From Alphaproteobacteria bacterium (GTDB lineage: Bacteria; Pseudomonadota; Alphaproteobacteria; CALKHQ01), in NCBI GenBank assembly GCA_965227515.1, contig CBDDFZ010000002.1:928001-992000 (forward strand): a stretch of DNA of 64,000 nucleotides, written 5' to 3'. A model generated the notes under the pieces. That model was not told the origin of the DNA, ran no database searches, and worked only from the letters and a program-made list of their open reading frames with translations. Below, piece after piece: positions 5,433-8,793 of this stretch; positions within the stretch are counted from its first letter, which is position 1; every line of letters starts with the position of its first letter. The translations under genes were made by a program, and so were the position numbers.

Positions 5433-6521
5433 ATGGGCAAGTGTCTCTCGCTCCTGTCGATATTGATCGGAATTGCGTTCGCTGCGGCAAGAGGGGCGGA
5501 TGCCGCGGACCAACCATATTGGGTGATTGACGGAATCGACGATCCCGCATTCCGGGATGCCGCGGTGAACTGGTTGCGCGGCGATGACGCTGGCGCGCTG
5601 CCTGAGCTGGCGCAGGCGGCCCATGATGGCAACCAGGCGGCGCAGATGCTGCTGGGCATGATCGAGCTGCGGGGCATGGACGACACAGCCTGGGTGGCGT
5701 CCCTCTCCGACGACGAATACGTCCACATCTTCCATCTTCGATCCGGTGGGCCCGAGCGCGGTTGGCTCCGCGTCGCCGCCGATGCGGGCAACCGTTTGGC
5801 GGCCCTCTTGGACGAGCGCCGCGGCGACATGGTCCATTTCGGAAGACTAGACGAAATTGCTGCAAGGCATGAGCCGCGTGCGGCCGCACATTACTTTCCC
5901 ATGCTCTTCAACGCGAAAGAGTGGGACATCCTCCGGTTCCTGGAGGATGCAGGCTATCTGAGTGGCCTGTCGCCCTATGTCTGGGCGGCCAGAACGTACA
6001 GCGAGACAGTCAGCGACGGTGAGACCTGGGATGAAGAACTCCAAGTGTACCGCGCGGGCGTGCTCGAGGGCTATCTGTTCGTGTTCTTGGCAGATCGCGA
6101 AGACGAGGCGCTCAGCGCCCTGAAAGAGGCGGAAAACGACACGCTTGGCGATGTCATGTACGGGTGGGCAAGTGTCGACCCGGACGAAGAAATGCCTGCG
6201 GAAGCAAAGACGGTGATTGACCGTTGGCTGACGGATTCACCGCACGCGGCACTTCTGCGGAACTGGTGCGCCGCCGGTTGTCGGGCGACGGCTGCGTTCA
6301 ATTGCCGGCGAAACCTGTATGCGCTGCTGCTGGGCGGGACGAATATTCCCCTTGTCGTGAGTTCGCCGTTGGAAACCATATTCGCGCAAGAGGATTGGGT
6401 CCGCACGCCCCGCGCTGGTTTGGTTCTGGAGGCTGCGGTCGCCGACCTGTTCGATTCCGAGCGGCTGGAACGCCTGGACCTTGAAAGCTGTGTCCTCAGG
6501 CGCTTGAGCGCAACCGACTAG
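5433..6521 (+). CDS. secreted hypothetical protein with degenerate Sel1-like repeats
   Basis: GGAGG RBS, signal peptide, ELAQAAHDGNQAAQMLLG and WLRVAADAGN; C-terminal Cys cluster. Confidence 0.6.
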   Translation: MGKCLSLLSILIGIAFAAARGADAADQPYWVIDGIDDPAFRDAAVNWLRGDDAGALPELAQAAHDGNQAAQMLLGMIELRGMDDTAWVASLSDDEYVHIFHLRSGGPERGWLRVAADAGNRLAALLDERRGDMVHFGRLDEIAARHEPRAAAHYFPMLFNAKEWDILRFLEDAGYLSGLSPYVWAARTYSETVSDGETWDEELQVYRAGVLEGYLFVFLADREDEALSALKEAENDTLGDVMYGWASVDPDEEMPAEAKTVIDRWLTDSPHAALLRNWCAAGCRATAAFNCRRNLYALLLGGTNIPLVVSSPLETIFAQEDWVRTPRAGLVLEAAVADLFDSERLERLDLESCVLRRLSATD

Positions 6522-6525
6522 CTCC

Positions 6526-6614
6526 GTCAGGGCGCCCGGATGAAACGCAGTGGAATAGGGACACTGCGTGACGGCCAGAAATGTGCCCGGATTGCGCTAC
6601 GCTCCATCCGGGCT
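6526..6614. repeat. GTAG-type REP doublet interrupted by IS110
   Basis: gcccggatgaaacgcagtggaatagg ... cccggattgcgctacgctccatccgggct, continuing as ac at 8035; related doublet at 20140-20231. Confidence 0.75.
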
Positions 6615-6644
6615 TCTGTAACGGGCCATTGTTGGTCAATCCCT

Positions 6645-6812
6645 TTTTCGTCGTCCCGGCGCCTGGGTCATGCTTCTGTACGGGGTCGGCGCAGGGCCGC
6701 CGCCAAGATGGATATGCGAGGATCGGTCGGTCCAATCTACGGAAGCGTGCTCTCATGCGAGGCGACATCCCGGATGGCGGCCTGACCTGATCCATCGTCC
6801 CGGCGCGGGACG
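6645..6812 (-). ncRNA. putative bridge/seek RNA of the IS110 element (ends approximate)
   Basis: Minus strand contains CCAUCCGGG, CGUAG, CCAUCU and UACAGAAG, matching left target, right target, left donor and right donor in that order, within two predicted internal loops. Confidence 0.75.
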
Positions 6813-6878
6813 GCGCTCGACGGGCCGGTGTCGGTGCCCGTCGAAGCTCGTGTGTCGGTTCTCCTTATGCCGCGGCCA

Positions 6879-7922
6879 TCATGCTGTCGCCATCGCCGGG
6901 CGCACCGGTCCGGCATGGTTGAACGGTGTGCCGTCAACCCACATCCGGTGCATGATCACGGCGAGCCGGCGCGCCAGCGCGACCTTCGCCTTCCTCATGC
7001 CCGCACGCCTGGCCAGCTTCATCGCCCAGCTCTTCAGCCAGCCGCCCTCGATCGGCCGGGTCAGAACCACGTGTGCCGCCTCATAGAGGGCCGAGCGCAC
7101 ATCGGCGTCCCCTACCTTCGATATCCGCCCCATCACCTCGCTCTCGCCCGACTGGCGCTTGGTCGGCGTCAGGCCGAAGTGCGCACCCACCAGGCGCGAC
7201 GAGGCAAACCGCCCGGGGTCGTCCACTCCCGACAAGTAGGTCAGTCCGACAATGCTCCCCACGCCCGGCACCGTCATCAGCAGGCGAGCGCGATCGTCGG
7301 CCTGCGCCGCCGCCCGGACCTGCCGGTCCAGCGCCGTGAACGATAGCAACAGGCCATCGCGTGCCGACAGCAGCGCCCCCGCCACCGCCTCCAGTACCGG
7401 ATGCCCCGCCACAAGCTCCGAAATACGTGTCGAAAAGCTGCGCCTGGTGGTGTGCCCTACCTTCAGCCCGAAGTTCCGCAGCTGACCACGAAGGTGCATC
7501 TCAAGATCGTGCAGCTTCGCGCGGAGCTGGTCGCGACCCTTCAAAAGGGCCCGCATCTCCTGGGCCGCCAAAGACTTGCAGTGAACCGGACGAAACCAGC
7601 CCACACGCATCAGCTGAGCAATCCCGCGTGCGTCCGAGCGGTCCGACTTCACCGGCATCGTCGAAAGGGCCCGCGCAACATGACGCGTCTCCAGCAACTC
7701 AACCGAAAGACCGCCCTCGCTACATCCCCGCACAAGCCATTGCGACAACGGCCCCGCCTCAAGACCAATCCGCTCAACCGAAATCCCCAAAGACCCAAAC
7801 CACAACAACAAACCCGCCGGCGTGCTCGCAATACGAGCCTCGCAGACAATCCCGCCCGCGCCGTCAACAACGCACACCGATGACCATTCCAAAGAAACGT
7901 CAATCCCGGCATAGTAGTTCAT
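6879..7922 (-). CDS. IS110 family DEDD recombinase/transposase
   Basis: GIDVS (D), GLEAG (E), KSDRSDA (DxxD), VPGVG, GLTP..RQSG (catalytic Ser), ISKVG, KVALARRLAVIMHRMW; GGAGAG RBS. Confidence 0.95.
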   Translation of the reverse strand: MNYYAGIDVSLEWSSVCVVDGAGGIVCEARIASTPAGLLLWFGSLGISVERIGLEAGPLSQWLVRGCSEGGLSVELLETRHVARALSTMPVKSDRSDARGIAQLMRVGWFRPVHCKSLAAQEMRALLKGRDQLRAKLHDLEMHLRGQLRNFGLKVGHTTRRSFSTRISELVAGHPVLEAVAGALLSARDGLLLSFTALDRQVRAAAQADDRARLLMTVPGVGSIVGLTYLSGVDDPGRFASSRLVGAHFGLTPTKRQSGESEVMGRISKVGDADVRSALYEAAHVVLTRPIEGGWLKSWAMKLARRAGMRKAKVALARRLAVIMHRMWVDGTPFNHAGPVRPAMATA

Positions 7923-8130
7923 GGTCGTCTCTCCTCGATGTCTTGGAGCGGCAAACCCGACTCCGTGTATGACACCGACATCTTGAGGGACGACCACTCA
8001 TGCACGCCACCAAACAAGGGCCGTTAGCCCATCTACGCTTGCTGGCAAGTGGGCAACGCCCTGGTTTGCACTGCGGGCGATCCATCCGATCCCGGCTAAT
8101 TCGTAGCCCAGAAGTCTGGAAAACTGCCGG

Positions 8131-8793
8131 TCAGAGCGCGTCTGTGGGTGTCAGTTCCAGTGTCCCAACTGCCTCAAGGCCACCGAGCACGGCGTCGACA
8201 GCAATGGTCGCGAGAAGAATGCCCATGACACGGCTGATCACGTTTGCCCCGGTCGAGCCCAGAACCGGTTTCAGTTTCGAGGCGGCCAGGAGCAAGAGCA
8301 AGGTTATAGCCATGACCACAAGCAGCAGGCCCGCCGTCACAGCCTGCTCCGACACGGTGTTCTCCTTGTTGTCGGTAAGCACGACAATCGCCAGCATAGC
8401 GCCCGGCGATGCGATGGACGGCATCGCCAGTGGGAATACCACGCCGGCCAAGTGATTGCGCTCGGCCTCGTGAATTTCTTGCTCGGACTTGGATTCACCA
8501 AATATCATGGTCATCGCAAAGATGAAAAGTACGATGCCGCCGGCTATTTGAAACGAGCCAAATCTCAGTCCAAGTGCTTCCAAAATCAACTGCCCTCCGA
8601 CCAGGAAGACCAGGAGAACAATTGTTGCTATCAGTACGGCACGAATTACAAAGGCGCGGTGCAGGTGTTTGGGTACGCCGGCCGTTGCAAAATATAAAAC
8701 TGGCAGGCTGCCAATCGGATCGACAACCACAAGGATAGTTATGAATTCTCGCACCAAGTTCGGCAGGTTAGCAGCAGAGAAAAGGTGTTCCAC
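8131..8793 (-). CDS. MarC family membrane protein
   Basis: VVDPIGSLPV, FQIAGGIVLF, VFPLAMPSIASPGAM, RVMGILLATIAV; GTG start. Confidence 0.9.
   Translation of the reverse strand: MEHLFSAANLPNLVREFITILVVVDPIGSLPVLYFATAGVPKHLHRAFVIRAVLIATIVLLVFLVGGQLILEALGLRFGSFQIAGGIVLFIFAMTMIFGESKSEQEIHEAERNHLAGVVFPLAMPSIASPGAMLAIVVLTDNKENTVSEQAVTAGLLLVVMAITLLLLLAASKLKPVLGSTGANVISRVMGILLATIAVDAVLGGLEAVGTLELTPTDAL

Follow-up and report, generated by a model that had tools for sequence, protein, structure and literature searches.

A stretch of 64,000 nucleotides (nt) from the genome of an alphaproteobacterium (GenBank assembly GCA_965227515.1, contig CBDDFZ010000002.1, positions 928,001 to 992,000; hereafter the window, in which all unlabeled coordinates are counted) contains an insertion sequence (IS) of the IS110 family whose 3′ non-coding end, on our reading, encodes a bridge RNA of about 174 nt, of the form also called a long seekRNA. 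We give this reading, which as a whole explains the evidence best, a probability of roughly 0.88. The anatomy of the region, its conservation, the covariation within its helices and the covariation of its guides with DNA were computed; expression and function are deduced from them. An initial annotation of this DNA had proposed an intact, naturally programmed RNA-guided recombinase with a downstream guide and a new specificity. Protein domains, RNA structure and guide covariation support the recombinase and its guide as far as sequence can; the new specificity is true yet trivial, each lineage having its own.

The element occupies 1,420 bp (a length that counts one copy of its CT core), carries its transposase gene on the minus strand and inserts at repetitive extragenic palindromic (REP)-like hairpins.

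6615-8034, minus strand: IS110-family insertion sequence, assigned to the IS1111 group; 20 full copies in the genome have exactly these limits
6586-6614, plus strand: left half of the REP-like target hairpin, ending in the left target CCATCCGGG (6604-6612) and the core CT (6613-6614); adjoins all 20 copies
8033-8037, plus strand: right copy of the core CT (8033-8034) and the right target ACG
6619-6635, minus strand: subterminal inverted repeat of the right end, from an inverted-repeat search
8010-8026, minus strand: subterminal inverted repeat of the left end, from the same kind of search
6879-7922, minus strand: gene for a DEDD transposase, or bridge recombinase, of 347 amino acids (aa) from ATG, identified by Pfam, NCBIfam and the motif GLTPTKRQSG

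A BLAST search with 6560-8090 found 20 full copies and one broken copy in the window's genome (two contigs, 5.5 Mb in total). Identity to the query was 98.8 to 100% for 13 copies, 95.2 to 97.3% for six and 89.6% for one. With the border marked by a slash, the window's left junction reads ccatccggg-CT/tctgta (6604-6620) and its right junction gcccat-CT/acg (8027-8037). When the 20 copies were aligned with their flanks, similarity between flanks stopped in every case at ...GG-CT/TCTGTAAC on the left (window 6614/6615) and at ...CCCAT-CT/AC on the right (window 8034/8035), limits that bear out the target and donor strings read initially, and CT was the sole dinucleotide common to both junctions. 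AC directly followed the element in 20/20 copies, the transposase frame was open in all of them, and each had entered a REP-like sequence at the same point, duplicating nothing of the target but the shared core dinucleotide, the site-specific insertion expected of the IS110 family. Judged by sequence, that is, by identical limits, open frames and 13 near-identical copies, the 3′ non-coding end belongs to an active insertion sequence of the IS1111 group.

The group assignment follows published criteria, and here as elsewhere the literature is cited for the passages that bear on this element. The marks of the IS1111 group are subterminal inverted repeats, a long downstream non-coding region and a GL-P----SG motif (Durrant et al. 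2024, PMC11208160; Siddiquee et al. 2024, PMC11187229), with a transposase of 330-350 aa carrying GL-P----S(T)G (Siddiquee et al. 2024, PMC11187229) and a guide RNA downstream of the gene (Durrant et al. 2024; Siddiquee et al. 2024). In the window, 17-nt imperfect subterminal repeats, within the 7-17 bp given for the group, are set in from the termini by the core and a further 4 nt on the right or 6 nt on the left, and 24 of 41 homologous loci, those where both ends were definable, show the same layout. The right end, downstream of the gene, is the longer (264 nt, 6615-6878, against 112 nt, 7923-8034, for the left end). We set the gene at 6879-7922 because homologues begin at MNYYAGID; protein queries used 6879-7925, one codon more. 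The 347-aa product falls inside the published size range and has GLTPTKRQSG at residue 251 of the query. By these repeats, end lengths and motif, the element is a member of the IS1111 group. Both domains of the IS110 family were matched in Pfam (PF01548, 48.6 bits, cutoff 29; PF02371, 73.2 bits, cutoff 21.3), as was the NCBIfam equivalog NF033542, "IS110 family RNA-guided transposase" (237.4 bits, cutoff 140). The nearest PDB structures, ISCro4 (E = 9.7e-12) and IS621 (E = 6.8e-11), were distant and aligned in the C-terminal domain alone. A general literature search named no such element; ISfinder and the supplementary lists of Durrant et al. and Siddiquee et al. lay beyond that search.

Next, we examined the region downstream of the gene in homologues, which came from a scan of species-representative genomes (29 loci, 39-69% protein identity) and from 401 genomes searched within the same class, 24 of which gave a match, counting the window's own genome and an unpublished one (G240) of which no further use was made. 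Past their stop codons, the homologues have in common a conserved scaffold in which some patches vary. RNAalifold on 19 sequences gave a long-range closing stem (P1), a stem of the target loop (P2) and a hairpin between the donor guides (P4), and a covariance model (R1) located the whole structure in the window (6643-6816, minus strand, 124.6 bits, E = 7e-31).

6643-6816, minus strand: predicted gene of the bridge (long seek) RNA, a conserved structured non-coding RNA of 174 nt with all four guides, from covariance model R1
6799-6806, minus strand: 5′ strand of P1, the long-range closing stem, pairing with 6659-6666; RNAalifold, helix 1, 4/4 pairs change on both sides
6659-6666, minus strand: 3′ strand of P1; RNAalifold and covariation
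6784-6793, minus strand: 5′ strand of P2, GGAUC-A-GGUC, which closes the target-binding loop and pairs with 6720-6728; helix 3
6720-6728, minus strand: 3′ strand of P2, GACC-GAUCC; covariation
6749-6763, minus strand: P3, inner hairpin of the target-binding loop, GCCUC-GCAU-GAG-A-GC, read from the sequence
6682-6704, minus strand: P4, hairpin between the two donor guides; helices 4 and 5, 6/7 pairs change on both sides
6817-6844, minus strand: stable hairpin past the stop codon and before P1, perhaps the RNA's 5′ stem-loop; single-sequence folds

Across 57 sources R1 gave 46 matches, in the window and at about 40 homologous loci, always downstream of a related transposase gene where the surroundings were traced. 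Its 21 matches in the window's own genome all fell within IS copies (the 20 full ones and the broken one), and no separate shorter element was found among them. In the R1-derived alignment, 92.7% of 827 pair cells were paired, compared with 73.5% in shuffles; 17 of 21 pairs showed changes on both sides, a count reached by 0/500 shuffles; and sliding the partners by 1-3 columns lowered pairing to 41-51%. Frequent G-U pairs fit the minus strand only (one pair, for instance, is UG in 19 sequences). Helix 3, which is P2, had changes on both sides in 7/8 pairs and 92.7% of its cells paired, again with G-U pairs that fit the minus strand only. These results indicate a secondary structure supported by covariation, as is characteristic of bridge RNAs and seekRNAs, in an alignment fitted to the model.

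Most of the stems read by eye in the initial annotation recur in this fold. The ggauc/gguc...gacc/gaucc stem is P2 (6784-6793 paired with 6720-6728), the inner cuc-gcau-gag hairpin exists and extends to 5 bp with an A bulge as P3, where homologues have a longer hairpin, and the cggc-ccugc-gccg hairpin lies within P4. A further local hairpin, gucccg..cgggac, had been placed before both guide pairs. It can form but has no support from covariation: its GUCCC/GGGAC stem had 77.6% of cells paired compared with 76.6% in shuffles, 114/500 of which were as high. The loop bases of this proposed hairpin covary with the 3′ end of the RNA, and the hairpin is better read as the 5′ strand of P1. As for the hairpin at 6817-6844, one of differing sequence abuts the start of the model in most of 11 relatives, according to single-sequence folds; RNAalifold found no consensus upstream of P1, where the alignment is poor. 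The hairpin could belong to the RNA as a 5′ stem-loop, or could signal processing. An Rfam scan of 6000-8600 with E up to 10 gave no relevant match and no bridge-RNA family, it being not established whether Rfam 15 has one; the only matches, mir-769 and flavi_FSE, were at chance level, and neither lay in the element's non-coding end.

Four segments of the structure match the target and the donor DNA, each at the position first proposed for it on the minus strand.

6769-6777, minus strand: left target guide (LTG) CCAUCCGGG, identical to the plus-strand left target, so that it would pair with the complement; covaries with the flank
6737-6741, minus strand: right target guide (RTG), CGU and the core complement AG, then a conserved AUUG; matches the flank, and its core tracks the ends
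6706-6711, minus strand: left donor guide (LDG), CCAU and the core CU, in the junction between P2 and P4; matches the left donor (LD)
6673-6680, minus strand: right donor guide (RDG), UACAGA and the core AG, the same 8 nt that terminate the element's right end; matches the end 6-mer

As DNA, the minus strand reads CCATCCGGG, CGTAG, CCATCT and TACAGAAG at these four places. The "canonical order" of LTG, RTG, LDG and RDG claimed for them stands only with the CT strand as top, a choice by which the gene falls on the bottom strand; read in the direction of the transposase it does not stand, and the order is the one published for the IS1111 group. Nor is the shortness of the RTG the weakness it was taken for, since the RTG of IS621 has four bases, beside nine in its left guide (Durrant et al. 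2024, PMC11208160; Hiraizumi et al. 2024, PMC11208158).

We then compared guides with DNA across the homologues, defining the ends of each element without the RNA. Ends were set by a 9-mer inverted repeat ending TTA/TAA (or ATA/TAT), beyond which 4 nt and a 2-nt core were counted off on the right and 6 nt and a 2-nt core on the left; the two cores had to be equal. This rule had a single solution in 24/41 loci; the 17 that failed it (contig ends, truncated elements, indels in the repeats) are outside all guide counts. For permutation tests the 24 loci were collapsed to 15 representatives, referred to here as lineages. Loci L030, L021, L022, L023 and L028 were dropped as sharing the target of L020 (LTG matches of 9, 10, 7, 2 and 9 nt), L017 as the same element as L016 (8 nt), L068 and L049 as sharing the target of L070 (2 and 8 nt), and L048 for a flank of just 3 nt; L031, with a left flank of 3 nt, was additionally left out of the RTG test.

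The LTG had a junction-anchored exact match of at least 6 nt to the right flank (in element orientation) in 15/24 loci and 9/15 lineages, with 9 nt in the window. The mean match was 6.0 nt, compared with 2.5 for mismatched pairs, and 0/20,000 permutations reached the observed value. Covariation of the guides with their flanks in homologues, which the initial annotation had named as a check, was thus found. For the RTG, the bases just 5′ of the conserved AG-AUUG matched the left flank over a mean of 2.29 nt, compared with 0.63 (0/20,000 permutations). For the RDG, the last 4 nt of the element and the core were present in the junction between P4 and P1 in 23/24 loci, in six types. Six of seven end types (CAGAAG, GAGAAG, GCGAAG, GAGAAC, GACAAC and AAGAAG) matched their own RNA only, and the seventh, GGAAGG (L053), was found in no RNA among the 24 loci. 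The LDG gave the weakest signal, with a mean of 4.73 of 6 positions matching between LD and LDG, compared with 3.81, across 11 end types (16/20,000 permutations reached the observed value). Furthermore, a clade of four loci (L070, L068, L049 and L057) replaces the AG core (CT when read on the opposite strand) with AC (GT) at both ends; AC stands in the RDG in 4/4 of them and at the RTG anchor in 3/4, L057 being misaligned there. These results indicate that, as in a seekRNA, two loop segments match opposite target strands, overlap at the core and covary with the target, the LTG failing in 6/15 lineages; and that, as in a bispecific bridge RNA, two donor segments covary with the element's ends, the LDG more weakly than the RDG.

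Several observations weigh against a bridge RNA. Its transcription, its ends and its strand are read from covariation and G-U pairs, and a scan for sigma-70 promoters over 6500-8150 gave 0 sites, hence none within the integrated element. The RNA alignment (A2) is fitted to the model and its sequences are related, so that shuffle counts overstate significance. Single-sequence minimum free energy (MFE) folding was no better than that of shuffles (z = -1.5 and -0.8), and such folds pair the guides with each other; we preferred the comparative structure. The LTG match is unconvincing in six of the 15 lineages (L015, L043, L026, L057, L053 and L051), and is only 2 nt in two of the dropped loci, L023 and L068. 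As the initial annotation rightly cautioned, in the window an A follows the LTG where the core needs C (AU, not CU), and IS621 has a strong preference for a core paired on both strands (Durrant et al. 2024; Hiraizumi et al. 2024). CU follows the LTG in 8 of the 15 loci with an LTG match of at least 6 nt. The LDG match in the window is just 4 nt plus the core, and the window element is the only one of 20 loci examined with a full core after the LDG.

A further such point comes from ISEc11, in which a 70-100-nt RNA with target matches only sufficed for transposition, the role of the long form being left open in that account (Siddiquee et al., PMC11187229), so that donor guides may be unneeded. 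By extension, the P2 domain (about 6720-6793) alone might guide, with the protein recognizing the ends through the subterminal inverted repeats; the "RDG" and the CCAU "LDG" would then be features of the DNA, such as an alternative internal end, or scaffold. ISPpu9 is described as forming several circles through alternative internal end boxes (PMC12288879), which favors this explanation, as does the modest LDG signal. However, RDG and LDG occupy fixed single-stranded positions in a junction whose helices, P1 and P4, themselves covary, the RDG tracks six end types including the change of core, R1 matched nothing in the genome apart from the IS copies, and donor-complementary nucleotides are reported in the multiloop of IS1111 orthologues (Durrant et al., PMC11208160). 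We consider an RNA that guides to the target alone unlikely and prefer a bridge RNA with all four guides.

Two observations concern individual homologous loci. L013:2597-2790 holds a complete bridge RNA, lacks the -35 box, inverted repeat and terminus that make up the last block of the right end, and is apparently a truncated or rearranged copy. In L029, a contig of a Hyphomicrobium metagenome-assembled genome, a second module consisting of the target loop only (2768-2838; model positions 29-99, 28.6 bits, E = 8.7e-6) lies downstream of a full bridge RNA (2565-2747). The right flank of L029 matches the LTG of the second module over 8 nt plus CU, and that of the first over only 3 nt. This module is a single example, and the relative L036 is without it.

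Within the window's genome, every full copy lies at the 3′ foot of a REP-like hairpin, whose 3′ arm forms the left flank, and the same 29 nt (6586-6614) are present alone at many empty sites. REP-like sites of the form nCAYCCRGG-CT-AC number 134 (114 empty and 20 occupied). Their Y/R variants are used unevenly, the counts of empty and occupied sites being 60/2 for CG, 33/8 for CA, 18/9 for TG and 3/1 for TA. The LTG is CCAUCCGGG in the 13 near-identical copies and CCAUCCAGG in the six copies of 95-97% identity and the copy of 89.6%, a one-base difference of G or A. The corresponding target base was G for 11 and A for 2 of the 13 copies with the G guide, and A for 7/7 copies with the A guide (Fisher test, p = 0.00046). 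Nine of the 13 G-guide copies lie in the class that matches perfectly, which makes up 20% of the 134 sites (p = 0.0002), and A-type sites, 34% of the total, hold all seven A-guide copies (p = 0.0005). All departures from a perfect match are U-G or G-T positions of the RNA-DNA pair, and no copy needs an A-C pair.

Some single copies and sites are of separate note. Window 6540-6614 belongs to this REP-like family, and upstream of the window copy a second, inverted half-REP resembles a bacterial interspersed mosaic element. The subfamily of 95-97% identity differs from the window copy (window 6878-6900) in two ways, a 9-nt insertion just past the stop codon and a protein C terminus of different sequence. 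A copy starting at 926299 on contig C1 is 97.3% identical overall, yet has a subfamily-B non-coding region, and may be a recombinant. The broken copy (C1:998352-999208) consists of two pieces, 89% and 95% identical, lacks most of the 5′ half of the transposase gene and gives a partial match to the RNA model (53.4 bits).

We assessed how readily the window's four matches arise in random sequence with 20,000 dinucleotide-preserving shuffles of the 256-nt non-coding region, scored by the length of the junction-anchored match. The observed length was reached by 146 shuffles for the LTG (9 nt), 1,480 (7.4%) for the RTG (5 nt), 808 (4.0%) for the LDG (6 nt) and 15 for the RDG (8 nt), and the summed length of 28 was reached by none. 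RTG and LDG are therefore weak individually, and the set of four guides is not.

The number for the LTG bears on another explanation, in which the region is a cis-acting element of the 3′ untranslated region, controlling the stability of the transposase mRNA or its translation, and the guide matches are remnants of past REP insertions. REPs are abundant and partly palindromic, a GC-rich 9-mer match does turn up in shuffles, and the MFE stability of the region is unremarkable, all of which would suit such an element. In contrast, homologues with unrelated targets have a matching guide at the same position of the loop in nine of 15 lineages, and the single-base difference between the guides of co-resident subfamilies mirrors their differing sites. 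We regard a cis-acting element as very improbable beside a bridge RNA. Chance, in the sense of four short matches picked by eye from GC-rich sequence, could draw on the individual rates for RTG and LDG, and is refuted as far as computation can refute it by the summed match and by all of the comparative evidence, leaving it a negligible prospect.

The element belongs to an already described kind of system. IS1111-group bridge RNAs or seekRNAs include those of ISEc11, ISPa11, ISKpn4 and ISPst6 and are predicted for 93% of the IS1111 elements in ISfinder (Siddiquee et al. 2024, PMC11187229; Durrant et al. 2024, PMC11208160). These sources describe downstream RNAs, a donor multiloop and long forms of 145-170 nt; a guide complementary to the top strand that lies 5′ of the bottom-strand guide, the reverse of the IS110 type (Siddiquee et al.); and donor guides in a three-way junction, predicted for many elements (Durrant et al.). 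Like these members, the window element has subterminal inverted repeats, a short left end and a long right end, a gene for a GL-P----SG transposase of about 340 aa with the RNA encoded downstream of it, a top-strand-complementary guide 5′ of the bottom-strand-complementary one in its own orientation, donor-complementary nucleotides in a multiloop, a long form of roughly 145-170 nt and an outward -35 box at the right end. By analogy, the 174-nt structure would correspond to the long form and the P2 domain (about 74 nt) to the short form of 70-100 nt. Apparently of a different lineage from the named elements, it has a target of its own, the 3′ foot of an alphaproteobacterial-type REP, and its LTG is followed by AU and not by the core CU, though its LDG has CU.

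With IS621 the element shares the order of LTG, RTG, LDG and RDG when the CT strand is taken as top, the CT core, a REP target, a long left guide with a short right one, and a DEDD recombinase with a Tnp_20 C-terminal domain. It differs in that the RNA of IS621 lies upstream of the gene, in the left end, whereas that of the window lies downstream, both genes being inverted relative to the ends in the window element; in that the donor guides of IS621 sit in a simple internal loop and those of the window in a three-way junction; in its subterminal repeats of 17 nt, compared with only 2-3 bp; and in a protein related at the distance given above. ISPpu9 and ISPpu10 of Pseudomonas putida (PMC12288879) are likewise IS110-family elements inserted in REPs that recombine at AG (equal to CT) through circles. 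ISPpu9, of the IS110 group, has its bridge RNA upstream, and its downstream RNA, Ssr9, is described as a separate, dispensable module (PMC12288879); the R1 search of the window's genome found no modular RNA copies of that kind.

From this anatomy we infer transcription, processing, protein binding and catalysis along the following lines. The RNA would probably arise by trimming from the tail of the transposase transcript, through processing such as Siddiquee et al. proposed; with no promoter-like site found in the integrated element, a transcript tail that needs processing would be its source. P1 would close the three-way junction, and the P2 branch would hold both target guides in an internal loop around the small hairpin P3. 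There, CCAUCCGGG would pair with one strand of the REP foot and CGU-AG with the other, across the CT core. The donor guides would be single-stranded in the junction on either side of P4, CCAU-CU reading the left end and UACAGA-AG the right. The RNA-bound DEDD transposase could then join the circle junction and the REP target and exchange strands at CT; RNA-guided exchange at this core would make insertion orientation-specific, with no duplication beyond the core. One further feature may concern the circle.

6634-6639, minus strand: outward-facing TTGACC, by analogy with published cases a putative -35 box, of a promoter that the circle junction alone would complete

TTGACC lies 19 nt before the core, and a TTGA-type hexamer ends at 19 nt in 17/24 loci and at 18-20 nt in 22/24. 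Joining the ends would put GAAGAT 17 nt downstream of it, that is, with a 17-nt spacer, and the pair would fit the junction promoters described for the IS110 family.

Beyond the bridge RNA itself, we tentatively advance, at somewhat less than even odds, a joint proposal: that the G-guide and A-guide subfamilies split the genome's REPs between them by pairing rules, with perfect matches preferred, G-T and U-G tolerated and A-C excluded; that elements of the IS1111 type do recognize their own ends through RNA, by guides in a three-way junction; and that L029 hints at more than one target module per RNA.

The analysis establishes no new principle. It adds a well-documented bridge RNA of the IS1111 type, for an element whose ends are defined and for which one genome offers 20 occupied natural sites and 114 unused ones, and its covariance model places all four guides in a three-way-junction architecture that had so far only been predicted for the group. 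The two guide variants with their site preferences are a natural data set on the tolerance of mismatches and wobble pairs. If the joint proposal is true, the division of the REPs by two guide variants would be a natural retargeting experiment within one genome, and the six-way covariation of the RDG would settle that IS1111-type elements read their ends by RNA, a question left open by the published seekRNA work.

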